Source: Thermodesulfobacteriota bacterium (GTDB taxonomy: Bacteria; Desulfobacterota; Desulfobacteria; Desulfobacterales; C00003060). Taken from it: 64,000 nt of DNA. The position numbers and the translations under genes were made by a program. The stretch covers positions 64,001-128,000 of the forward strand of contig JAXHVD010000006.1 in the NCBI GenBank assembly GCA_034189385.1, written 5' to 3'. How positions within the stretch are numbered: the stretch's first letter is position 1; each line of letters opens with the position of its first letter. Positions 47,270 through 62,958 of the stretch are shown here, piece after piece. The notes beneath the pieces were generated by a model, which was given only the letters and a program-made list of their open reading frames with translations, did not search any database and was not told where the DNA came from.

Positions 47270-48430
47270 ATGCGTATTCTCGTTGTTGAAGATGATGAGC
47301 CGACCCTGCTTCTCATGAAAGAATGGCTCGAGGGTTGGGGCCACACCGTTTATCCAGCGGAAAGCGGATTGGAGGGATGGACAAAGCTCAAGTCTGTTCC
47401 TGTGGACATCGTCGTGACCGACTGGATAACGCCGGAGATGAACGGGCTGGAGCTTTGCGAGCGTCTACGGAAGGCCGAATTCGGACGTTACATCTATCTC
47501 ATTCTGGTCACTGCCCAAGACTCACAACAAAACATCGTCCGTGGTCTCGAAGCAGGGGTAGACGATTACATTACAAAACCGCTCAACTTCGAGCAGGTGC
47601 GTGCACGCCTTGATATTAGTGCTAGGATCTTAAAACTGAAAAGTGAGCTCACTCGCAGGGACAACGTCATAAGGGACAACTATTTTCAGGCGATTCATAT
47701 GCTCATCAACCTGATAGCAGCCTTTAATGAGGACCTAGGCAACCACTGTAGAAGGGTGGCTACGTTATCTGTCAGGTTGGCAAAGCGCCTCCCCGACGTC
47801 TCGGACTACGACCTGTCCATTGTTGAGGCCACCGGCCTTCTTCATGACATCGGCATGGTAGGCATGCCGCCTAGCGTCCTGACAAAACGAACGACAGAAA
47901 TGAACGGTGAGGAAAAGGATTCTTACAAGTGCCACCCCGCTTACGGAGAAACTATTTTAAATAAAGTTAAAATGTTACAGCCTGTAGCTGCGTTGGTCAG
48001 GGCCCATCATGAACAGTTTAACGGTCGGGGCTTCCCTGACGGCCTGAAAGACAACGAAATCCCTCTTTTGGCGAAGATCGTCTCAGCGGCAGATGCTTAT
48101 GACAAGGCTTTCTACAACTGGAAGATACCATTGGAAGAGATCCCCGACTGTCTGCAACGGCAGCGGGGGTATCAATTGGCGCCTCCCTTAGTGGATCACC
48201 TTATGGAAATCAACTTGGAGGACATAGAGGAAGAACGAAGAAAGGACTTCTTTGAAGTCCTTTTGGATGACGTGCAGGAAGGCATGACGCTATCTCGCAG
48301 TGTGAGAATGAAAAATGGGACACTCGTCATGCCGGCCAACACGGAGCTGACCAGCTACGGCATTGAAAAGCTAAAGGAATATGTAGAGCTGAAACGTATC
48401 GGCAACAGACTCTATGTCTACAAGCATTAG
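47270..48430 (+). CDS. Response regulator with HD-GYP domain (RpfG-like)
   Basis: REC (EDD, TDW, TKP); LLHDIG, HHE..NGRGFP and DAYD motifs. Confidence 0.9.
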   Translation: MRILVVEDDEPTLLLMKEWLEGWGHTVYPAESGLEGWTKLKSVPVDIVVTDWITPEMNGLELCERLRKAEFGRYIYLILVTAQDSQQNIVRGLEAGVDDYITKPLNFEQVRARLDISARILKLKSELTRRDNVIRDNYFQAIHMLINLIAAFNEDLGNHCRRVATLSVRLAKRLPDVSDYDLSIVEATGLLHDIGMVGMPPSVLTKRTTEMNGEEKDSYKCHPAYGETILNKVKMLQPVAALVRAHHEQFNGRGFPDGLKDNEIPLLAKIVSAADAYDKAFYNWKIPLEEIPDCLQRQRGYQLAPPLVDHLMEINLEDIEEERRKDFFEVLLDDVQEGMTLSRSVRMKNGTLVMPANTELTSYGIEKLKEYVELKRIGNRLYVYKH

Positions 48431-48441
48431 GGGAGAGTCAA

Positions 48442-48536
48442 ATGGACATTGCACCGGTCATCGGCCTTAAGGGGGGCTGCACCGAGGTGGCCAGTTTTCT
48501 TGATGGCAGTGGTTTATGTTTGTCAATTCCCCTAGC
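48442..48536 (+). pseudogene. motA/pomA 5' remnant
   Basis: RBS plus MDIAPVIGL.GG, then frameshifted MFVNSPS, matching the MotA N-terminal pattern; the rest is not recognisable. Confidence 0.55.
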
Positions 48537-48867
48537 TTCGTGCTTCATCAAATTCTCCAGGAGAAATGTGATTCATTCCATCAAATTAGTCTGAAGGGCG
48601 TTCATGTGTAAAATGGGGCCAACAAATAAGTCCATAAAAAAGTGGCGTTTTTGCTAAAACCGTCAAGAAAGAGGCGTTGCTTGCCTCTTTCTAACGGGTT
48701 GCGCCAGCGCCTGGCGGACCATTCCAACATCTGACTATCCCGGGCTTCTCAAGAGTGCCTCATTGGCCATTTCCCAGAAACGAATCGTCTTTCAATGCCC
48801 TGCACTGGTCCGTTCTTTCCTGTGATTACTATCGTCATCTTTAGTGGCCATGATGATGCCTTTTGCC

Positions 48868-49010
48868 TTGCACCGAATAAGCGAGCGCATTCCCCTTAGC
48901 TTGCTACGGGGTTAGCGAGCGTATAGTTAAACAGATAACAACCTTACGGTGCTGCGGAGCTCTCCCGTCAGGGAGAACATTCCCAGTGGCTTGCCACGGG
49001 GAGGGTTCAA
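48868..49010. mobile_element. Non-autonomous palindromic element, copy 2 (inverted)
   Basis: Reverse complement aligns to 20137-20255, with an extra internal hairpin TTCTCCCTGACGGGAGAG. Confidence 0.7.
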
Positions 49011-49190
49011 TTACCCTAAAGTCTTTTTTAAAACTGCCGATCTTTAGCAGTGAAAGGCGGTCGGAATGGATTCTCAAACAAAGGCCAATGGTCCCAGGCC
49101 CTAAGGCATGGGGCCGAGAGGAAGGGTGATGGGTTGGGCCTTTCGCAAAAAGCGACTGGGACATGCTGTGGAAGGACCCTTTGCGAGACG

Positions 49191-50417
49191 ATGAAGCCCA
49201 GGAGTATAACTCAAACCATCGTGCGATACGCCTTGATAACAGTGGCTTTTTTGATCGGCTGCTCCTATCAGCGCCACGTCACGCTTCCACTCCCTGATTT
49301 ACCCGAGGGCGTTCACGCCATCCCAAAAGAGAACATTTACGGGTCTTCCAGGGTGGCGGTCTTTGCATTTGCAGAGCCCTCTTACGCCCCTGGAACGGGA
49401 AGGCTTGCTGCGCAAACGATCGGTCATGCCTTGTTGAAAGAAGGCGTGTTTTCAGACGTGGTGGATGAATCTCAGCGGGTGTTCTTCGGCACAGCAAACC
49501 CCATGGATCTGGCCCGATCCGAAGCCTACGACCTGATCATCACCGGAGAGGTCCTCTACCACTTTGATGGCAGTGCATTACAAGCATCAAGGGTCACGGA
49601 GCGGATCCGCGTCAGGCACGTGGCCACCAAGAGGCTCCTCTGGCACGCCACTGCGGCAAGTGCGGGGAGGGCTGCCCCTTCTTTTGACTACATCCTGGTC
49701 AAGGGCATGGGATGTCCTGCGCTGCCCACCTCTGCCTTATTGCGGAGAAACGCGGAAAAGTTCTGTAACATGCTTCTCAGGCAGCCGCCTCAAGCCGCTC
49801 CCGCTGAAGAGAGTAGAGAGCTGCTGCTGATATCCCAGCAGTCGGCCTTGGAAGGGCTCCAAGAAAAGGTTAATGACCTGCTGGCACACAATGACGTGCT
49901 GGAAGAACAGCTTTGGGAAGAAATCCAGAAAAGCGAGGGGCTCCTCAAAGAGGTGGATAACCTTTCCGCACAGGCCGATCAAATGGAACAAGCGCTCAAA
50001 GAAGAGATCGAGAGGGGAGAGATCGCGCTGAAACGATATACTACTAAGACCGTCGTAAACCTGGACAACAGTATCTGTTTTGACTCCGGCTCAGCAAAAC
50101 TGAAAAAGGAAGTGAAAAAATCCCTGGCCAAACTCTCTAAGACCTTAAAGGACTTCCCAGATAACCATATCCAGATAGAAGGGCACACGGATGACCTTCC
50201 CACTCATGGCTATGATTTCTCTTCCAACTGGGAGCTTTCCTCAGCCCGTGCGGTGGCTGTCCTGCAATTCTTGGTGGGAAAAGGAGACATAGACTCCAAA
50301 AGGCTCTCTGCCGTGGGACACGGCGAAAACCGCCCCACCGTCCCGAACGATTCGCCTGAACACAGACGGATGAACCGCAGGGTAGACATTGTGGTTCTGC
50401 CGCCAAAGGCCCATTGA
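49191..50417 (+). CDS. Lipoprotein with coiled coil and MotB/OmpA-type peptidoglycan-binding domain
   Basis: Lipobox LIGC; FDSGSA, IEGHTDD.P, SNWELSSARA and NRRVDI motifs. Confidence 0.85.
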   Translation: MKPRSITQTIVRYALITVAFLIGCSYQRHVTLPLPDLPEGVHAIPKENIYGSSRVAVFAFAEPSYAPGTGRLAAQTIGHALLKEGVFSDVVDESQRVFFGTANPMDLARSEAYDLIITGEVLYHFDGSALQASRVTERIRVRHVATKRLLWHATAASAGRAAPSFDYILVKGMGCPALPTSALLRRNAEKFCNMLLRQPPQAAPAEESRELLLISQQSALEGLQEKVNDLLAHNDVLEEQLWEEIQKSEGLLKEVDNLSAQADQMEQALKEEIERGEIALKRYTTKTVVNLDNSICFDSGSAKLKKEVKKSLAKLSKTLKDFPDNHIQIEGHTDDLPTHGYDFSSNWELSSARAVAVLQFLVGKGDIDSKRLSAVGHGENRPTVPNDSPEHRRMNRRVDIVVLPPKAH

Positions 50418-50566
50418 CCTGAAAAAGCGGTTAAAATAACCTGTGAAAGGTCAACGATTTGACGCATGGTCGGGGACGTCACCATGCCATCAACCTTATG
50501 TTGAATTACCCCCTCCGTAAGCCCCCATATACTGTAGTCTTCAGGCCCATATCTTGGACGAACACG

Positions 50567-50582
50567 TTGGCATGATTCCTGC
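50567..50582 (+). promoter_or_regulatory. sigma54 promoter of the pilB-like gene
   Basis: TTGGCATGATTCCTGC; palindrome GTCAA-N4-TTGAC at 50450-50463 is a possible activator site. Confidence 0.6.
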
Positions 50583-50676
50583 CTAAAAGGGGTTGGACTT
50601 GGTTCTCCCGTACCTTCCGTGAAGTTGGCGGTGGTGGAGACATCCGGTACATCCAACAGGTTGAGAGGCAGGCTTC

Positions 50677-52602
50677 ATGATGCCACTTCAGAAAGACGCT
50701 GCCGGGATCGGCCCGGGCAAAAAGGCGCCTCCGGCAGATCCTTCCAAAGACTTCGGTGAAATCGTACCCCTGCTCTTGCAGGAAGGGTATATAACGGAGA
50801 AGCAGGTCCGTTATGCCCAGAGGGTCCGGTCAAAGCTCGAAACGTCTGCCCCTTTGCTGGGAGTTGTAAAGGAACTCCAATATGTTACCGATAAACAGAT
50901 CGAGAAGGTGCTCAGGGCGAATTTGGGTATCATACGAACAGGAAGCCTCCTGGTTGAGCTGGGACATATCAGCGAAGCAGACCTAGAGGCCAGTCTTGAG
51001 ATCCAGAAAAGGGAAAACCCTAAAAAGAAGCTGGGCGAAATCCTTGTTGCCCACAATTTCATCAATGAACGGACCATACTGGAAACCCTTTCTTTGCAGC
51101 TCGGTTTTCCTATTGTGGAGCCAGAGTTTGTGGAAATTGATGAAAAACTTGCATCCAAAGGAAGAACTGAGTTGTATGTGACCCGGGGCTTTCTTCCCCT
51201 TCGCAGGGAAGGTCAGGGCGTCTTTATAGCCTTTGTAGATCCCACGGACAGTCGTGATGTGGAGGCGGCCAAGAAGCTCTTTGGCAATGACATTACTGTA
51301 GCCATAGCCACCAAGGACTCTATCATCCGGGGAATCAAACGGATTCAGCCCGATGCCAAGACGACCTTGTCTGTGGGGATGGATGACAGCTCAATCGTGG
51401 AAACCGCAGATGCCATTATTCTTGCAGCTATTGAAGAAGATGCCAGCGATATCCACATCGAGCCCATGCATGACCGGATTCGTGTCCGCTTCCGCCAAGA
51501 CGGCGTTCTGGTCCATTACAAGGATTTTCCCCTGGAAATCATTCCATCCCTTACCAGTCGCATCAAAATCATGTGCGAAGCGGACATTGCTGAGAAGCGC
51601 AGGCACCAGGGCGGCCGCATTCTCTTTCAGCACAAAGGCGGAGAACTGGACTTGCGGGTCTCCTTTTACGTCACTGTCCATGGCGAAAAGATCGTGTTGC
51701 GCCTGTTGAACCGCCAGAACCAACTCTTCGACCTCGAAGACATAGGCATGTCGCGCAGGATGCTGGAAAGGTTTAAGGAAGACGCTATTGATCGACCAAG
51801 TGGCGTGGTCATCATTACGGGGCCCACTGGGTCAGGAAAGACCACCACGGTCTATAGCTCCATCAACTACCTCAATGATCCCCAGACAAGCATTATCACT
51901 GCTGAAGAGCCTGTCGAATACGTTATCCCCGGCATATCCCAGTGTTCTATCGATCCCAAGATCAACCTCACCTTTGATGAGACATTGCGCCACATTGTAC
52001 GCCAGGACCCGGACATCGTGGTCATCGGTGAAATCCGTGATACCTATTCAGCCGGAGTTGCCGTGCAAGCAGCACTGACAGGGCACAAAGTCCTCACCAC
52101 CTTTCACACGGAGGACAGCATCGGAGGGCTCATCCGGCTGCTGAATATGGACATTGATGCCTTTCTGATCTCCTCCACGGTCGTGTGTGTGGTGGCCCAG
52201 CGGCTTTTGCGAAGGGTGTGTAAGTCCTGCGAAATGCCCCATCAGCTAAGCCCCGTGGAACTCCGTCGCCTCCATTACGGCCCCCAGGATGTCCTTGGGG
52301 TGGAGTTTCGAAAGGGTCGAGGATGTCCTGAGTGTCGATATTCAGGGTACAAGGGGCGGGTGGCCATATTTGAGCTCCTTGTTCTTGAAGAGCCGGTTCG
52401 CGACGCCATCTTGGCCCGTAAGACCAGTCATCAGATCCGCAGCATCAGCATAGAGAGCACGGGACTGGTGACCCTTTTGGAAGACGGCATCGTCAAGGCT
52501 GCTGCTGGTATTACCACTGTTGAAGAAGTGCTCAAGTGTCTTCCGCGGCTGCAAAGACCTAGGCCTCTGGCAGAGTTACAGCACCTTCTGGGAGGAGCAT
52601 GA
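50677..52602 (+). CDS. GspE/PilB family ATPase with MshEN-like N-terminus
   Basis: ASDIHIEP, GPTGSGKTT, RQDPD, GEIRD, TGH, CxxC pairs and GYKGR motifs. Confidence 0.92.
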   Translation: MMPLQKDAAGIGPGKKAPPADPSKDFGEIVPLLLQEGYITEKQVRYAQRVRSKLETSAPLLGVVKELQYVTDKQIEKVLRANLGIIRTGSLLVELGHISEADLEASLEIQKRENPKKKLGEILVAHNFINERTILETLSLQLGFPIVEPEFVEIDEKLASKGRTELYVTRGFLPLRREGQGVFIAFVDPTDSRDVEAAKKLFGNDITVAIATKDSIIRGIKRIQPDAKTTLSVGMDDSSIVETADAIILAAIEEDASDIHIEPMHDRIRVRFRQDGVLVHYKDFPLEIIPSLTSRIKIMCEADIAEKRRHQGGRILFQHKGGELDLRVSFYVTVHGEKIVLRLLNRQNQLFDLEDIGMSRRMLERFKEDAIDRPSGVVIITGPTGSGKTTTVYSSINYLNDPQTSIITAEEPVEYVIPGISQCSIDPKINLTFDETLRHIVRQDPDIVVIGEIRDTYSAGVAVQAALTGHKVLTTFHTEDSIGGLIRLLNMDIDAFLISSTVVCVVAQRLLRRVCKSCEMPHQLSPVELRRLHYGPQDVLGVEFRKGRGCPECRYSGYKGRVAIFELLVLEEPVRDAILARKTSHQIRSISIESTGLVTLLEDGIVKAAAGITTVEEVLKCLPRLQRPRPLAELQHLLGGA

Positions 52603-53441
52603 TGGGGAAAAGATCTTTCGCAGACCTCCTGGATGAACACATCAAAAGCGAGAAGACCGTGCTTCCGCCATTTAACAAGACCGCTCTGCGTGTCCGGCGA
52701 GAAGTGGTTAAGGAGGAGCCGGACACCCGAGTGATAGAGGAACTCATTTCCCGTGACCAGTCTCTTGCAAGTCAGGTATTGAGGACCGCCAATTCCGCCT
52801 TTTGCGGTGGTCTCGTGAAAGTGATCACCGTGCACGATGCTGTCGTTCGTCTGGGAGTAAAAGAGGTTTCCAATATCGTCATCCTGGTCACACAGCGGAA
52901 CCACTTTCGCTCCAAAGACCCCTTTGTCAATGAGATCATGGAAAGACTCTGGCAACATTCCGTGCAATGCGCGATAGGGGCTCAGTGGCTTGCCAGGTAT
53001 TGCGGCTTTCAGTCCCTTGCAGATCAAGCCTTCATTGCAGGTTTGCTCCACGACGTTGGAAAACTGTTCCTTCTCATGGTCATCGAAGATATTTGCAGCT
53101 CCGGAAAGATGACCTCGCGACCCTCCCATGCCATGGTAAATGAAATCATGAACAGCTTGCACGCAGAACAGGGGTATTTTCTTCTGAAGAATTGGAACCT
53201 TCCGGAGACCTATTGCGTTATCGCCCGCGACCACCACACAGAGGAATTTGACTCCAAGGACCACTTGCTGGCAGTCATCCGACTGGTGAATAAGGCCTGC
53301 CACAAAATGGGCATTGGCTTGAAGACAGACACAGACATTGTCCTGGCGGCAAGTCCCGAAGCCGAGTTGCTGAACCTGTCTGAGGTCTCCCTGGCAGAGC
53401 TGGAGATCACGTTGGAAGACTCCCTGGCCCTGGCACCCTGA
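52599..53441 (+). CDS. HDOD domain protein
   Basis: LPP, D..LA..VLR.ANS, AVVRLG and AGLLHDVGK motifs; overlaps the ATPase stop. Confidence 0.9.
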   Translation: MMGKRSFADLLDEHIKSEKTVLPPFNKTALRVRREVVKEEPDTRVIEELISRDQSLASQVLRTANSAFCGGLVKVITVHDAVVRLGVKEVSNIVILVTQRNHFRSKDPFVNEIMERLWQHSVQCAIGAQWLARYCGFQSLADQAFIAGLLHDVGKLFLLMVIEDICSSGKMTSRPSHAMVNEIMNSLHAEQGYFLLKNWNLPETYCVIARDHHTEEFDSKDHLLAVIRLVNKACHKMGIGLKTDTDIVLAASPEAELLNLSEVSLAELEITLEDSLALAP

Positions 53442-53711
53442 AGGCGAGATCCTGAAAAACCCCAAGACACCTCATGGCGTGATGGCCTTTTCCTTGACAC
53501 AGGTTGATTTGTCCCTGTATTTGTGAATATAGGGGTATGTGTGTCCCGCTACGGATCCCACGCTGCATGTTGGCAGCAATGCCTCTTGTGAGTGCTAGGC
53601 AATAGACCCTCTGAAAGCCCCTGGGCTTTCCGACAACCGCCGTACGGACAAAAGGGTTACCCGTGGGGTTCAAAGGAGCCGTCCAAGTTCGCCCCGGAAG
53701 AGAGGAATTTG

Positions 53712-54395
53712 ATGGAAACAAAAATACTGATCGTTGATGACGACGTACATATCCGCAGCCTCCTTGCAAGCTTTATGGAGAAAAAGGGATACCACTTTGA
53801 CCTAGCCGAGAACGTGAACAGTGCCCTGGAATTCATGGAGAAAAACGAATATGATATTGTCTTAACGGACAAGAATATGCCTGATCAAGAGGGTAACCTT
53901 GAGGGAGGCATGACAGTATTGAGGTATGCTAAAGACCATGCGCCGGCCACGGAAGTGATCATGATTACAGGGTACGCCACCATAGAAACGGCTGTTGAAG
54001 CCATGAAACTCGGTGCCTTTGACTATGTCATGAAGCCCATTTCGCTCAATGAATTGGAAGAGAAAATCGAAAGAGTGTTGGAATATAGACGGTTCGTTAA
54101 TTCGGAAGATACGATCAAGACTTACAGAACCCTGCACAATCAATTGCTGAAGGTCCTAGAAAACAGAGAGGATCTTCCAGAGGATCGACTTCGCCAAATT
54201 ATAAAGACCCTGGGGGCAAGGATCGACAATGTGTTCGGTATGCAAAAGGATTATGAAACGATCATCCAGTCACAGGCCGATGCCTTAGAGCGAATTGAAG
54301 GGTACATAGCGGGCCTGGAGGAGACCATCCCCAAGGACAGTCCCTATTATGCCTTGATTGACAAAATTCGGGGGGAGTGCAAAAAACGAATATAA
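53712..54395 (+). CDS. Response regulator (REC plus helical C-terminus)
   Basis: ILIVDDD, LTDKNMP, ITGY and GAFDYVMKP motifs. Confidence 0.88.
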   Translation: METKILIVDDDVHIRSLLASFMEKKGYHFDLAENVNSALEFMEKNEYDIVLTDKNMPDQEGNLEGGMTVLRYAKDHAPATEVIMITGYATIETAVEAMKLGAFDYVMKPISLNELEEKIERVLEYRRFVNSEDTIKTYRTLHNQLLKVLENREDLPEDRLRQIIKTLGARIDNVFGMQKDYETIIQSQADALERIEGYIAGLEETIPKDSPYYALIDKIRGECKKRI

Positions 54396-54888
54396 ACGAC
54401 GCCACATATTGTGAGGCCCTTTTTCTTGACACATCACCCGTTCTTTCCTATACTCCTTTATCGTAATAAGCGAATCCTCTTCAGTTGTTCCCCCTGAACT
54501 TTCCTCACCAAAAGGCGAGTCCTTGTCAATCAGCGACATGGCACCATTTGGTCCCGAGGTGGAGACGTTGGCTATTCCCGTGACTGTGGGGCATGTTGTC
54601 CCCAAGTCGAATATATCAAGAATGTCGTATCACTGAAAGACATGGTTCAAACACCGGGTTGGCCCCTATGATCAAGAGGAGGCCTTCAAGGCAGGGGCCT
54701 TGAAACGTTTGGATTTCCGTCTTGTGTGATACAGGGTTGCATCTCAGGATTCGAGAAAGCAATGGGCCACACAAGGTTTCTCGTCCGTCTTTTTGACAAA
54801 ACGGTTTAAGCCAAAGCGCCTTTGCGCGTTTTTTCAAACAACTTGGCGTTGCTCTTGGCCAGGCGTGTCCTTGGGCGGAAAATAGCCC

Positions 54889-57198
54889 ATGGAGGTATCC
54901 GTGCCTCACGTTCCAAAGATTCTGGTTGTTGATGATGAGCCCCGTATCTGCGACAGCCTCAAAATAATATTGGGCCATGGCGGCTACGAGATACTGACCA
55001 GCTGCAGTGGCAAAGAGGCCTTGGCTTGTATGGCCCAACACCACATTGATCTTGTCATCTTGGACATGGTCATGCCTGAGACAGACGGCTGGGCGGTGCT
55101 GGACAGCATGGCTGGCCAGGAGGTACACACAAAGGTCATTGCCATGAGCGGCAATGCCTCCGTAGAGTCTGCAGTGGCAGTACTAAAGAGCGGCGCTTGT
55201 GATTATCTCAAGAAGCCCTTTGGGCATGACGAGCTCCTAGGACGGGTTCGAAGTGCCCTATCAAAGGACAGTGAAGAAAAAAGGAAGACTATCAGTCAAC
55301 ACCTGGAGCGGTCAGAGAGGCGATATCGATTCCTAGTCCAGGCTTCTCCTGACATCATCTATACACTCGACCGGGAAGGGCGGTTCACCTTTGTCAATGA
55401 TGCTGTTCATCACTTGCTTGGTTTCACCCGACAGGAGTTGATAGGCTCACCCTATACGACTGTTATCTATGAGAAAGATTTGAACAGGGCCAACTACCTT
55501 TTCAATGAAAGACGAACGGGAGACCGTGCGGCAGCAGGGGTGGAACTGCGATTGAGGATCGCTCAAAACGACAATGGGACTGAGCAACATGAGACCAGCT
55601 TTCTTCCCATAGAACTCAAAGCCACGGGCGTCTACGAATCACTGCGCCCTCAGGGTAGCCAGAAGAGATATTTGGGGACCTACGGTGTTGCCAGAGATAC
55701 AAGCAATCGAAAACGGGCAGAGGAGGCATTGCAGAGAAGCGAGGAACGTTATCGGGCATTATTCGAAAATAGCCCTATCGACACAGTCATCGTGGACCAT
55801 GAGGCAAGAGTGACAGATTTCAATCTTGCAAAGAGACGGTCAAGCGATAGGCTGCCCAAGGTTGGAGATGTGATGTACAAAGACTATGCCGGCAAGCACG
55901 GGACTGGCATGCTGGGTAAATTGAGAGAGTGCATGAGGACAGGGCTGCCTGAGGAGTTCCCGGAGCAAAGGTACGGTGATAGGTTCCTGCACATAAGGAT
56001 GTCTCCCTTCTCCGAGGGCGCCATCATCACATCCATAGACATCACGGCCCAGAAGAGGATCGAAGCGCAGTTCCAACAAGCTCAGAAGATCGAGGCCATT
56101 GGAACACTGGCTGGTGGCATTGCCCATGATTTTAATAACCTGCTTATGGCAGTGTTGGGAAATACCTCCTTGATACTCCACGACGTGGGTCCCGATCATC
56201 CCCACTATGAACGGCTAAAAAACATTGAAGAACACGTCAGAAGCGGAGCTGCACTCACCAGGCAGCTTCTCGGATATGCTAGGCAGAGACAGTATGAACT
56301 CCAGCGTATTGACTTAAATGCCTTGGTCAAAGAGACTGCCTATGCCTTTGGGAGAACAAGAAAGGACACTGTGCTTTACCAGGAATTGGCAGAAGGCCTG
56401 TATGAAATAGACGGTGACAAAGGCCAAATGGAGCAGGTTCTGTTGAATCTATACGTAAACGCCGCAGAGGCCATGCCTGGGGGCGGGAGCCTCTTTTTGA
56501 AAACCGTGAACCGATCCCGTGAAGAGGTCAGGGGCAAGCTCCATGATCCCCAACCTGGCAACTATGTCTTGTTGACAGTTACCGATACGGGTATTGGGAT
56601 GGATCGAGAAACTCGAGAGCGCGTATTTGATCCATTTTTTACCACAAAGGAACTGGGCCGAGGCACGGGGCTTGGGCTTGCTTCAGCCTATAGTGTCGTC
56701 AAGAGCCATGGTGGACACATTGAGGTGGCCTCAAAGAAGGGCAAGGGGACCACTTTCAGCATATATCTTCCTGCGACAAAAAAAAGGGAGGAGACCGCCA
56801 TCGCGGCATCTGAACAAAGTGCGATCAAGGGCAGAACCATCCTGTTGGTAGATGACGAAAAGATGATTCTGGATATAGGGGGTAAGGTGCTAAACCGCTC
56901 AGGTTACCATGTCCTGAAAGCGGCAGGGGGCAAAGAGGCGTTGCAGGTCTATAAAAGGCACAAAGATAAGATTGATCTGGTGATTCTGGATATGAGAATG
57001 CCTGACATGGGCGGCAGTGAGGTCTATAACCAAATCAAGGAGATAGACCCTGGCGTGAAAGTTCTCCTTGCCAGCGGTTACAGCATAGATAGCCAGGTGA
57101 GAGGACTTTTGGACCGTGGTTGTAACGGTTTTATTGAAAAGCCCTATAGAAGAGAAGAATTGACTGAGACCATAACGGAAATTTTGGACAAGCCATAG
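54889..57198 (+). CDS. Hybrid sensor kinase REC-PAS-PAS-HisKA-HATPase-REC (CckA-like)
   Basis: AGGIAHDFNN H-box, FDPFFTTK, GTGLGL; two REC and two PAS domains. Confidence 0.93.
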   Translation: MEVSVPHVPKILVVDDEPRICDSLKIILGHGGYEILTSCSGKEALACMAQHHIDLVILDMVMPETDGWAVLDSMAGQEVHTKVIAMSGNASVESAVAVLKSGACDYLKKPFGHDELLGRVRSALSKDSEEKRKTISQHLERSERRYRFLVQASPDIIYTLDREGRFTFVNDAVHHLLGFTRQELIGSPYTTVIYEKDLNRANYLFNERRTGDRAAAGVELRLRIAQNDNGTEQHETSFLPIELKATGVYESLRPQGSQKRYLGTYGVARDTSNRKRAEEALQRSEERYRALFENSPIDTVIVDHEARVTDFNLAKRRSSDRLPKVGDVMYKDYAGKHGTGMLGKLRECMRTGLPEEFPEQRYGDRFLHIRMSPFSEGAIITSIDITAQKRIEAQFQQAQKIEAIGTLAGGIAHDFNNLLMAVLGNTSLILHDVGPDHPHYERLKNIEEHVRSGAALTRQLLGYARQRQYELQRIDLNALVKETAYAFGRTRKDTVLYQELAEGLYEIDGDKGQMEQVLLNLYVNAAEAMPGGGSLFLKTVNRSREEVRGKLHDPQPGNYVLLTVTDTGIGMDRETRERVFDPFFTTKELGRGTGLGLASAYSVVKSHGGHIEVASKKGKGTTFSIYLPATKKREETAIAASEQSAIKGRTILLVDDEKMILDIGGKVLNRSGYHVLKAAGGKEALQVYKRHKDKIDLVILDMRMPDMGGSEVYNQIKEIDPGVKVLLASGYSIDSQVRGLLDRGCNGFIEKPYRREELTETITEILDKP

Positions 57199-57252: not shown

Positions 57253-58614
57253 CTAAGGATTCTTACTTGTACCAAGGGTCTGGAGGACGGTCTCGATCAC
57301 TTCAGATGCCTCAGGGCTTTTTACCACGACTGCATCCGCACCGGCTTCCAGGGCGCGCTTTCGCGTTTCAGCCCGATGGTCGGCAGTAAATAGGACCAGT
57401 TTCGTATCCTTGCAGGTATCTACTGCACGCACTCGCCGACACACCTCTATGCCAGTTAGAGTGGGCAGCGTGAAATCGATCACTGCTGCCACTGGTTTTT
57501 CCCGAATGATCAGATCCAGCCCGTCTCCTCCATTGGTTGCGGTCATTGGATGAAATCCGACCTTCTGAAAAAGACGGGCATAGAGTCTCAATATTACCGG
57601 ATTGTCGTCCACGATGACCAGCTTATTAGGTTCCAGTGGCGTCAGGGTGGGGCGGCTCTCGTCATCCTCCTCATAGTCAATCACCAAGAGCATGTCAGCC
57701 CCTTCCAGGACGGTCTCTCGGTCCGGGAAGATAAAATCTCGGCCGTTCTTGCGAAGCCCCATGATCTCCCGGCCCATCACCATGGAAACGGAGCGTATCG
57801 TTTCGCCCAACATGCTGGACCCCTCTTGGACACTTACCCATTGGGGGACTGCCTTGTGGCGGCGAGTCTCGTGCAATGTCGCCCGCTTCCGCGTAGCCGA
57901 AAGCACTTGCTCCGCGATCTGTTTGCCTGCAGTGGCAAAAGGTGAAATGACGTTATTCGCTCCACCGCGCAGTATCTTTTTCTCCGATGATGGATTCTCC
58001 GCCCGTGCGATGATGTGCAGCATAGGATTTAGATCCCGGGCAGTGAGGGCAGTAAAAAGATTGTCAGGGTCTGAATTGAGGAGGGCAAGAAGACCAGCGG
58101 CAGATTTTATTCCAGCCCCTAGCAATGTGGCTTCCCTCGTAGCGTCTCCTTCAACAATGAGATAGCCCTTCTCTCGAATCTTATGGGTCTGTGCTGCATT
58201 AGCCTCGATGATGACAAAATCAGCGCCTGTTTCTCTGAAATACTCCGCAGCGGCCATCCCAACCCTTCCATAGCCACAAACAACATAGTGGGACTTCAGG
58301 CCAGAGATCTTCTTTCTCATTTTCCTTATCCCCGATTTACCACTCCAGACCTTTTCAAGGAGCGATTCAACTATGGCATGTCCAACAAATGCAAGGCCTC
58401 CAACGCCAACAAGGATAAGCACGGTGGTGAATCCCCGCCCTATCTCCGATAGCGGTTTTACTTCCCCGAAGCCTACGGTCGTGATGGTAATGACGGACAT
58501 GTAGAGGGCTTCAAAGAATGTGTAATCCTCAATGAGGATATAGCCTGAGGTCCCAATGGCAATAATACTCAGGCACAGCGTCAAAGCCATCGTGATGCGT
58601 CGACGCGAAGACAT
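57253..58614 (-). CDS. 2-TM potassium channel with RCK (TrkA-N/C) and C-terminal receiver domain
   Basis: Selectivity filter TTVGFGE, RCK GYGRVG and GDAT, then REC VIVDDN...VIDFTLP...LFTA...VVK. Confidence 0.9.
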   Translation of the reverse strand: MSSRRRITMALTLCLSIIAIGTSGYILIEDYTFFEALYMSVITITTVGFGEVKPLSEIGRGFTTVLILVGVGGLAFVGHAIVESLLEKVWSGKSGIRKMRKKISGLKSHYVVCGYGRVGMAAAEYFRETGADFVIIEANAAQTHKIREKGYLIVEGDATREATLLGAGIKSAAGLLALLNSDPDNLFTALTARDLNPMLHIIARAENPSSEKKILRGGANNVISPFATAGKQIAEQVLSATRKRATLHETRRHKAVPQWVSVQEGSSMLGETIRSVSMVMGREIMGLRKNGRDFIFPDRETVLEGADMLLVIDYEEDDESRPTLTPLEPNKLVIVDDNPVILRLYARLFQKVGFHPMTATNGGDGLDLIIREKPVAAVIDFTLPTLTGIEVCRRVRAVDTCKDTKLVLFTADHRAETRKRALEAGADAVVVKSPEASEVIETVLQTLGTSKNP

Positions 58615-58768: not shown

Positions 58769-58784
58769 GCAATTTCTGTGCCCC
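58769..58784 (-). promoter_or_regulatory. sigma54 promoter of the K+ channel gene
   Basis: Minus strand GGGGCACAGAAATTGC (GG-N10-GC, CAC and TTGC conserved). Confidence 0.55.
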
Positions 58785-60194: not shown

Positions 60195-60707
60195 ATGGCA
60201 GAATCGGCAAAAGCAATGGACCAAACAGGAGAGGCAATGGCAGAGAGGGAGGGAAAGTATCTTACTTTTTCTTTGGACAACGAGGAATACGGGATAGGCA
60301 TCCTAAAGATCAAGGAAATCATCGGGATGATGCCCATCACCACCGTTCCCCATACACCGGACTATGTAAAAGGCGTGATCAACCTACGGGGCAAGGTGAT
60401 CCCAGTGGTAGACCTGCGGCTTAGGTTTGGCATAGAGCCCGCCAACTACACGGATAGAACCTGCATCATTGTGGTTGAGATCTTAAGTCAATCCGGTACC
60501 GTCCTGATGGGAATCGTGGTGGATTCGGTTTCGGAGGTATTGAATATGAAGGCGGGAGAGATTGAGGAAACCCCCACGTTTGGAATCAAGCTGGATACTG
60601 AATACATCCTCGGGATGGCCAAGATGGAAGGCGGCGTGAAGATTCTGCTCGATATTGATCGAGTCCTTAACGCGGAAGAGATAGCGGCCATGGGAAAGGC
60701 GGCATAA
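60195..60707 (+). CDS. cheW: Chemotaxis protein CheW
   Basis: YLTFSL..EEYG, GVINLRG.VIPV.DLR and GIVVDSVSEV motifs. Confidence 0.95.
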   Translation: MAESAKAMDQTGEAMAEREGKYLTFSLDNEEYGIGILKIKEIIGMMPITTVPHTPDYVKGVINLRGKVIPVVDLRLRFGIEPANYTDRTCIIVVEILSQSGTVLMGIVVDSVSEVLNMKAGEIEETPTFGIKLDTEYILGMAKMEGGVKILLDIDRVLNAEEIAAMGKAA

Positions 60708-60790
60708 CAATGACGGCATTGTCCCGTTCCGCACCTGCCTCAGATGAGAAAAAAGGACGGCAACATGACTGACATCAAGGAGACTAAAGC

Positions 60791-61963
60791 ATGTATAAGG
60801 ATTTGAGTGTAGACAAGAAGATTACATTGGGATTCGGCTTTCTTATTCTGTTGGCTGCTGGAAGCGGGGGAATATGTGCGTGGAAAATCTGGTCAGCGGA
60901 CATGGCCCTTGGCACCCTCATGGGGACCATGAGTGTAATCATCCTGGTCTTTGGTTCGTTACTGGCATTCTACATTGTGCGCAGTGCCACCAAACCCATG
61001 AGCCTGATCATTGAAGGTTTGAATGAAGCGGCAGACCTGGTAGCATCTGCCTCTGGACAGGTATCCTTAGCCAGTCAAGAGTTGGCTAAAGGGGCATCCT
61101 CCCAGGCCGCATCTCTTGAAGAGACGTCTTCGTCTCTTGAGGAGATGTCGTCCATGACGAAGCAGAATGCCGACAACGCAAACCAGGCAGATGGTTTGAT
61201 GAAAGAGGCCAATAAGGTAGTGGAGCAAGCAGATGCTTCCATGGACAAACTCATCGTATCTATGGGGGAGATCTCCAAGGCAAGTGAAGAGACCTCCAAG
61301 ATTATCAAAACCATTGACGAGATAGCCTTTCAGACCAATCTGTTGGCCTTAAACGCTGCTGTGGAGGCTGCCAGGGCCGCCGAGGCCGGTGCCGGGTTTG
61401 CGGTCGTCGCCGATGAGGTTCGGAACTTGGCCATGCGCGCGGCCACGGCAGCCAAAGATACGTCAGAACTGATTGTGGACACGGGAAAAAAGGTGGCTGC
61501 TGGATCAGAGCTCATGACCAGCACCAATGATGCCTTCCAAGACGTGGCCCGAAGCGCTGCCAAGGTAGGGGAGTTGGTTGCAGAGATTGCTGCCGCCTCC
61601 CAAGAGCAGGCGCAGGGAATTGAGCAGGTAAACAAGGCCGTGGCCGACATGGACCGAGTGGTTCAACAAAATGCCACCAATGCAGAGGAGTCTGCTTCTG
61701 CCTCTAAGGAGATGAACACTCAAACCGAAGAGATCAAGGCAGGCATAGGACACTTGGTATCTATCGTTGGCAGTGGGGCTACCAATGAAGCAAAGGGTGA
61801 ACCGCCACCTGGCCTGGAGGGCGGTACTGGACAGGAAAAGACTTTAGCAGCCGATTCTGTGAAAGAGGTGGAAGCGACACAGGGACTTGCCCTTGGAGGT
61901 GAAGAAGACACTCCTGAAGAGGTCATCCCCCTAGATGATGATGACAGTTTCAAAGATTTCTAG
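60791..61963 (+). CDS. Methyl-accepting chemotaxis protein with almost no periplasmic domain
   Basis: Two TM helices with a short loop; [19 protein letters not shown]...[11 protein letters not shown]-terminal SFKDF pentapeptide-like tail. Confidence 0.93.
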
Positions 61964-62124: not shown

Positions 62125-62565
62125 CTAGTGAATGGTGATTTTCCCCTGAGCTGTTCTCCTCGCCAACTCCAAGGTCCCTTTCATGATGTCCTTCGTCTTT
62201 TCAGCGGTTTTTCTCAATCGCCTGAGATTTGTCTCAAAATTCTCAAGGGCCTCTTGGGCAGCCTTCATGTGGCCCCTTCTTTCAGTCCGCATGCTATCTA
62301 TTTTGAGGAAGTCCTTATAGGCATCAAGAATCTTCCTGTTCATGGGCGAGAGCTCGCCTATTTCCATCTCCAGCACATAATAATTCGATCTGTGATGGCT
62401 CACAAATCTGCAACCAGTAATCGTTCCGGTGAGCGAAAAAGACCTCAGGAGGATGCCTTCAGGTAATCTTACTTCAAGCTCTGTCTTCGTTCCCACTTTA
62501 CTCGGTGCATCCGCATAAAAGGTCACTGTTCCCTCTGTGAATTCGATCAATTCGTCCATCATCAT
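62125..62565 (-). CDS. PilZ-like beta-barrel plus coiled-coil protein
   Basis: Pattern P..VG...EL...LP......F...G.I.......Y...MEI..LS.....IL; lacks RxxxR. Confidence 0.5.
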   Translation of the reverse strand: MMMDELIEFTEGTVTFYADAPSKVGTKTELEVRLPEGILLRSFSLTGTITGCRFVSHHRSNYYVLEMEIGELSPMNRKILDAYKDFLKIDSMRTERRGHMKAAQEALENFETNLRRLRKTAEKTKDIMKGTLELARRTAQGKITIH

Positions 62566-62615
62566 GTGACTCTCAACCCTTTCTCCGGAATGGACCCACC
62601 GGTGCCATAGTTGTT

Positions 62616-62632
62616 TGCAACCACAATGCCAG
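62616..62632 (-). promoter_or_regulatory. sigma54 promoter
   Basis: Minus strand CTGGCATTGTGGTTGCA, about 50 nt upstream of the PilZ-like gene. Confidence 0.75.
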
Positions 62633-62958
62633 TCCCGGGCTTTTGCAGTTATGACACATTTATTCAAATAGTTATGTCAACTTAAGAGGTGCTTTCACGT
62701 CATTGTGTCAGGTCGCGCTAGCCTTATTTTGAGAGAATAGGCGGTCCCTTCCCTCATTATGATTGACAAAAACCATGGAAGTCGGCTTGCGGTTGCCGGC
62801 ACACGGAAAAGGAGAGCTGGTGTGTCAACGAAAAGCGCAACAGAGTGCGCCGCGGTCTAGGCAACGTAACCATTTGCGATTATAAAAAGCTCCGCTTCAA
62901 GACCTCTAGGGGGACCACTGTCATAAACAAGCTGTCACCTGCCCTTTGACCTTAAGAA

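Follow-up and report, generated by a model that had tools for sequence, protein, structure and literature searches.

RCK-gated channels respond to ions and nucleotides, and two-component control of K+ transport acts mostly via transcription, as in KdpDE. Response-regulator censuses reportedly list fusions of receiver (REC) domains to transporters. The described channels that stand closest to the protein studied here are MthK and GsuK. According to the available text of PMC2573919, a separately expressed soluble RCK chain (M107-A336) completes the ring of MthK. GsuK is a dual-RCK K+ channel of Geobacter that is activated by ADP and NAD+ (PMC3510474, available part). Nucleotide-binding RCK domains are defined, in the accessible text of PMC6957272, by the motif GxGxxG[17-18]xE/D. 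A precedent in which a phosphorylation state controls an RCK-bearing K+ transporter in trans is the PtsN-YcgO pair (PMC11808508, available part). Our literature searches found no description of a REC-fused K+ channel, although domain-census listings may exist in supplements, and the terms 'receiver' and 'response regulator' are absent from the main text, in the parts available, of two surveys of prokaryotic channels (PMC2234077; bioRxiv 10.64898/2026.03.26.714534).

The gene described here lies at 57253-58614 on the minus strand of the window, i.e. the whole stretch of 64,000 nucleotides that was analysed. It is a single uninterrupted ORF of 453 amino acids, and its GC content is close to that of the surrounding DNA. 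The original prediction, that one ORF combines TM-pore-TM, RCK, a TrkA-C-like segment and REC, was borne out by Pfam matches to Ion_trans_2, TrkA_N, TrkA_C and Response_reg; all coordinates that follow for this gene are on the minus strand. The pore domain TM1-P-TM2 (residues 13-83, 58366-58578, E = 3.2e-15) contains the selectivity filter TVGFG (58465-58479) within the motif TTVGFGE at residues 45-51. It is followed by an RCK N-lobe of the nucleotide-binding type (residues 110-225, 57940-58287) with GYGRVG at 114-119, and by the RCK C-lobe (residues 259-312, 57679-57840), which scored 26.6 bits against a Pfam cut-off of 27 and lies above this cut-off in several homologues. An acidic and Pro-containing linker (57625-57678), variable in sequence and held in length, leads to the REC domain (residues 333-443, 57286-57618, E = 4.7e-18). 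All REC phosphorylation motifs that had been claimed are present: the acidic pair D336/D337 in VDDN, the phosphoacceptor D380 in VIDFTLP (codon at 57475-57477), T410 in LFTA and K432 in VVK. As two unfused 2TM-RCK paralogues are encoded in the same genome, the REC-fused protein is an additional channel. An AlphaFold2 monomer folded the individual domains (mean pLDDT 76.7) with low pLDDT at the RCK_C-REC linker, and its pTM of 0.37 implies that the arrangement of the domains is not fixed by the model. The complex prediction for an RCK dimer (two copies of residues 98-316) with REC (327-451) scored 0.00 in both runs, in which the controls did not fold, and counts neither for nor against a REC-ring contact.

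By sequence, MthK was the best solved match (residues 8-330, E = 3e-30), whereas by fold GsuK and MthK were the best matches with GsuK on top, and the RCK N-lobe alone best matched GsuK RCK2. The layout of 2TM and a single RCK is that of MthK, and an internal Met occurs at the spacing of M107 (PMC2573919, available text). The channel differs from MthK in having GxGxxG, which MthK lacks, and in its additional C-terminal REC. We take the acidic Ca2+ ligands of MthK to be D184, E210 and E212 in its own numbering, and presumably the first Glu of the MthK IIAEAE motif, to which Arg204 of the channel aligns, is a Ca2+ ligand. The MthK-type ligand set is incomplete in the channel: the E210 equivalent is Arg204 in 168/168 rows of group A, the homologue group of the window protein defined below, in which D182 and often E206 are kept. 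The nucleotide-binding RCK motif is complete, GxGxxG at 114-119 being followed after 17 residues by E137, and G114, G116, G119 and E137 were found in 120/120 rows. It is shared with the nucleotide-gated RCK rings of KtrA and TrkA, from which the window protein differs by the covalent fusion of its RCK to a 2TM pore; a by-eye reading of the sequence also gives Pro-Phe (225-226) where KtrA has a Mg2+-binding Pro-Glu. With GsuK the channel has in common both the TVGFG filter and the GxGxxG...D/E nucleotide site (PMC3510474, available part), but it carries one RCK per chain against two in GsuK, and the REC sits at the place of the second RCK of GsuK. K+ selectivity of the window channel is predicted from its filter; in GsuK, TVGFG gave weak K+ selectivity (same source, part available).

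The distribution of the fusion was studied in a homologue search that scored 7999 candidates and gave 892 matches. Among these, PF00072 was present in 119/119 of the best-listed homologues (query excluded), at an identity of 53-89%. The architecture search that had been proposed with the original prediction found RCK together with REC, by our own HMMs, in 239 of 371 fetched proteins pooled from three homologue retrievals, and the fusion is thus not a singleton. The combination of the same three domains recurs in an Atlas cluster with 164 members. The homologues are labelled 'NAD-binding protein', 'response regulator' or 'voltage-gated potassium channel' in databases; named cultured carriers include Desulfosarcina sp. 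BuS5, Thiovibrio frasassiensis and Desulfopila sp. IMCC35006, and among the taxa of the fused loci are Desulfobacterota, Bacteroidota, Calditrichota, Verrucomicrobiota and Anaerolineae. The fused form was not found among 40 sampled relatives (24 of the same genus and 16 of the same order); of 400 phylum genomes, with four candidates scored in each, 2 contained it. The fusion family is rare and patchy in its distribution. The fusions were sorted by BLAST score to two references into group A (n=168), to which the window protein belongs, and group B (n=71). Group A is a well supported clade (98-100); the trees leave the monophyly of A plus B, and hence one versus two fusion origins, unsettled, the REC tree having too few columns. 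An origin of the REC from DVU0259-like single-domain regulators was suggested by a sub-threshold NCBIfam match and a common Lys-Ser loop; it was not supported by HMM ranking, and a paper on it was not found in the literature search. Two family members appear interrupted by sequencing error or local decay, one being split by a frameshift (L104:481-1927) and the other having a stop just ahead of the REC (L162:238-1605).

The internal Met99 (codon 58318-58320; 58318-58334 with its Shine-Dalgarno-like bases) is kept in 159/168 group A and 60/71 group B rows. It stands 10 residues before H109, and M107 of MthK is equally spaced from its aligned His. The Met99 pattern was matched in 26 of 40 fused genes examined, and anti-SD pairing of at most -5 kcal/mol upstream of it was found in 20/26; the share was 23% for 144 Met codons elsewhere and 22% for synonymous shuffles. 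The same upstream signal was present in 89% of 57 unfused channels, and is thus an inheritance from the parent family. Met99 is a predicted start of soluble RCK-REC subunits of about 39 kDa. As such a soluble chain would carry a REC, there could be up to eight receivers per channel.

A C-terminal Hpt domain after the REC was found in 62/239 fusions (19/168 in group A and 43 in group B), and a tandem as in the REC-Hpt tails of unorthodox kinases thus occurs in a quarter of the fusion family. The His-x-x-Lys motif was matched in 57 of these 62 and not in the other 5, and Pfam confirmed the Hpt in 14 of 51 proteins scanned. The remaining 177/239 fusions end at the REC, with neither a C-terminal Hpt nor another output domain, so that no effector but the channel remains in those chains. 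On the tree the Hpt has a scattered distribution, which requires 13 or more changes within the 94 fused rows. Two further proteins, P0151 and P0292 (773-774 aa), have an N-terminal Hpt ahead of channel-RCK-REC, which by eye resembles the CheA P1 domain. A stand-alone Hpt gene lies two genes upstream of the channel gene at L016, where Hpt, REC-GGDEF and channel follow each other on the same strand, and another 32 bases downstream of it, also on the same strand, at L096. An Hpt was fused or present at 8/43 fused loci versus 1/117 control loci; the counts are not independent, L029 and L108 apparently being a single contig, and three family members in truncated or split form (L103, L106, L162) stand among the controls. 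Through Hpt domains that many homologues carry in fused form or have next to them, the family is tied to phosphorelays. The channel of the sediment bacterium itself carries no Hpt. Its genome (90% complete) encodes about 61 kinase-like ORFs and gave a single Hpt match (G000:C12:43369-43611), at the end of an HK-REC-REC-Hpt kinase, and as the holder of the only Hpt found in the genome this kinase is the leading candidate donor for D380. The kinase (L180:4253-7657 on the plus strand, contig C12) reads PAS-PAS-HK-REC-REC-Hpt and has a Cys-rich N-terminus.

The donor originally proposed was the convergent neighbour of the channel gene, a soluble CckA-type hybrid kinase at 54889-57198 on the plus strand with the domains REC-PAS-(PAS)-HisKA-HATPase-REC, whose stop codon lies 54 bp from that of the channel. 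In hybrid kinases of the CckA type, the phosphoryl group normally passes to the C-terminal REC of the kinase itself. The convergent arrangement is kept in a contig of about 90% identity (run X2, record 9), which indicates local synteny and nothing more. Kinases were not enriched near the channel, being found at 6/43 fused and 11/117 control loci, and other two-component genes occurred at 10/43 and 26/117, respectively. A recurring kinase family was not found among the clustered neighbours of 30 fused loci and the window, and a channel-REC-kinase fusion, sought in proteins of 794-2265 aa, gave 27 matches among 3078 candidates with channel or RCK Pfam domains in none, which is weak evidence against such a fusion. 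The gene neighbourhood thus revealed no conserved adjacent cognate kinase, and it is improbable that the convergent kinase serves as the donor to the channel REC. A sigma54-like promoter had also been claimed. The motif GGCAC-N5-TTGC is indeed present at 58769-58782 on the minus strand, 155 bp upstream of the channel gene, and rpoN is present in the genome; however, although there is no second exact match in the window, 0.74 are expected by chance, at least one match occurred in 54/100 shuffles, and the motif was found upstream of 2/37 fused homologues versus 0/107 unfused ones. It does not exceed chance, but it is well placed and a sigma54-like promoter of the channel gene is plausible.

The surroundings of the gene (window 47270-55000 and 60195-61963) are rich in signalling genes of the REC-HD-GYP-type, OmpA/MotB-like, HDOD, REC, CheW and MCP kinds, and include a gene for an MshEN-bearing T2SS/T4P ATPase. 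An ORF of 180 aa at 62125-62667 on the minus strand had no Pfam match, and its middle looks PilZ-like by eye. At a Desulfobulbales-type locus (L032:9563-12860) the gene of the fused channel immediately precedes cdaA-cdaR-glmM, the genes of c-di-AMP synthesis, in the same orientation; clustering gives this arrangement also in L034, L035, L037, L038 and L045, and it may be one inherited event. The window genome encodes a DAC, and c-di-AMP was considered as a candidate ligand of the RCK C-lobe.

Based on the comparisons above, we consider it probable that the protein is a nucleotide-binding channel of the GsuK/MthK kind, the gating ring of which is modulated by phosphorylation of the REC from an Hpt-type relay. 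It would be a tetrameric 2TM K+ channel that doubles as a response regulator and has ion flux as its output. Full-length and soluble Met99-started chains would assemble into a gating ring of eight RCK domains with up to eight RECs, in which the RCK would bind an adenine nucleotide. The phosphoryl group on D380 would come from a partner phosphorylated on His, for which an Hpt domain is the likeliest candidate. Phosphorylation may then shift the contacts between REC and ring and make the pore either more or less likely to be open, which would alter K+ flux or the membrane potential. The retention of both pore and REC residues in group A and the links to Hpt were counted in favour of a REC-gated channel. 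As in response regulators with a non-DNA output, the REC has its phosphorylation residues, its partner here being an N-terminal ion channel. In PtsN (PTS-Ntr)-YcgO, too, K+ transport is governed by whether a relay protein is phosphorylated, but PtsN is His-phosphorylated and acts in trans on a K+/H+ antiporter, whereas here an Asp receiver stands in cis on a channel (PMC11808508, available part). Against REC-gating it counts that no conserved cognate kinase was found and that a C-terminal Hpt could equally drain phosphate from the REC.

A canonical TM-pore-TM filter was present in 142/160 group A rows as compared with 47/107 unfused relatives, which favours a working K+ pore that is selected together with the REC. 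In the other 60/107 unfused 2TM-RCK relatives the filter is non-canonical, its last Gly being often replaced by Arg, Gln, Ser or Lys, which indicates that filter drift is common in the wider family. In group B the K+ filter was lost in 31/68 scorable rows, all 31 of which are also without E137. The REC residues are nevertheless kept in 31/31 and an Hpt is present in 25, a point against the REC-gating model: selection can act on REC and Hpt where a canonical pore is lacking, and the signal may flow in the opposite direction. A remodelled filter, TPTQFDE, occurs in 17 group B rows. The named filter-less members are planctomycetes; the cultured ones P0288, P0294, P0308, P0316 and P0319 have channel-RCK-REC(-Hpt) with the filter TPTQF[DH]E and have lost the acidic residue of the nucleotide site. 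From their sequences, the filter-less proteins may have either a pore with changed selectivity or the role of a non-conducting signalling scaffold or relay. A related set of 19 sequences (P0193, P0212, P0327, P0330 and others) consists of 2TM-RCK channels in which hemerythrin replaces the REC; they nest with group B on the tree and are candidate O2- or redox-gated K+ channels.

The signal could also run outward. The state of the channel and its RCK (nucleotide load, K+, voltage) would then govern access to the REC as a membrane-anchored relay or phosphate sink, from which the signal passes to Hpt and on to other regulators, while the pore acts as a sensor or scaffold and not as the output. The order REC-Hpt of the 62 tandem-bearing fusions, which is that of unorthodox kinases, agrees with this, as do the filter-less group B rows that keep REC and Hpt, the one-strand arrangement of Hpt, REC-GGDEF and channel at L016, and the hemerythrin set, which shows that the C-terminal slot is interchangeable. 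However, 149/168 group A proteins, that of the window included, have no C-terminal Hpt, and their filter is canonical more often than in the unfused relatives. The altered filter of group B is itself conserved and could mean a changed pore, and a hemerythrin in the same slot would more naturally feed into gating. Outward signalling, although the main rival of REC-gating, thus seems rather unlikely. For the family as a whole we lean, with slightly better than even confidence, towards ion channels that are response regulators, in which a kinase acts through an Hpt, often fused in cis, on a channel-borne REC that directly opens or closes the K+ pore; the TPTQFDE branch would have an altered selectivity or be a pure membrane phosphorelay hub.

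The conservation of the REC bears on whether its phosphorylation matters. Among the 168 group A rows, D336 is Asp in 164, D337 in 165 and D380 in 164, with Thr or Ser at position 410 in 167 and Lys at 432 likewise in 167. The full set of five catalytic residues is found in 213/228 filter-scorable fusions, the other 15/228 being variants; the phospho-site residue is Glu, Asn, His or Gln in 9/239 fusions, with Glu in three close homologues. The mean pairwise identity of 121 non-redundant group A rows was 52% for the pore, 59% for RCK_N, 37% for RCK_C, 12% for the linker and 55% for the REC, within which helix alpha1, the usual docking helix for kinase or Hpt, reached 73%. In these rows the stretch from position 312 to 333 measures 16-24 residues, and RCK_C is, linker aside, the least conserved domain of the group A channels. 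Eight gene pairs were compared for dN/dS, with dS mostly near or at saturation; in the three measurable pairs, those with the lowest REC dS, REC dN/dS was about 0.08, 0.06 and 0.15, like that of the pore. Judged from these alignments, the REC is intact and under purifying selection, constrained as strongly as the pore; the decay that the original prediction had named as an argument against itself was not seen. Pro directly after the REC Lys is common but not universal. Lys-Pro occurs in 81 of the 103 REC rows of the genome, a total that counts the channel's own row, but K432 of the window channel is followed by Ser, and in 36/36 sampled rows of groups A and B this residue is Ser, Thr, Gly or Asp and never Pro. 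Mean-field covariation, underpowered at an effective depth of 100-153, gave inter-domain pairs such as T191-L447 and I214-Q350, which were indistinguishable from phylogenetic noise.

The REC might also be a structural or docking module on the ring that acts independently of phosphorylation, with nucleotides alone gating the channel. The atypical Lys-Ser/Thr loop of both groups and the replaced phospho-Asp in the nine rows would fit such a module, and the very high conservation of alpha1 could reflect a fixed interface. Its intact catalytic positions in 213 of the scorable rows and the fused or adjacent Hpt domains with their phospho-His speak against it, and we regard a phosphorylation-independent REC as quite improbable. 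The missing Lys-Pro, the Glu in the three close homologues and the attachment of the REC through a linker of variable sequence that follows the least conserved lobe also count against the REC-gating model.

Reading across the RCK_C-REC junction had been proposed as a check as well, and contigs from two studies span it: one of run X1, possibly the source sample, with 0 differences, one of run X3 from the same study, and one of run X2 from the other study with 8 differences in 351 bases. An assembly chimera or a recent decaying fusion, which the 0/40 sampled relatives and 2/400 phylum genomes might have suggested, is refuted by the 239 REC-bearing homologues and the Atlas cluster of the same architecture, the bridged junction and the purifying selection on the REC, and is given practically no weight. 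The REC-fused channel is genuine and conserved, and as a form of 2TM-RCK channel it has apparently not been characterised so far. New here are the C-terminal Hpt on 62/239 fusions, the ribosome-binding signal at Met99 and the loss of the filter in 31/68 group B rows.

The protein is small, REC domains are chemically switchable and cultured carriers exist, which makes the idea of REC-gating readily testable; a channel combined with a chosen kinase could yield a signal-controlled channel for synthetic biology. If REC-gating is true, His-Asp signalling would be coupled directly to K+ flux and membrane potential by a ring-borne receiver, and two-component signalling would gain an electrical output without transcription. 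This would bear on what gates bacterial K+ channels in vivo.
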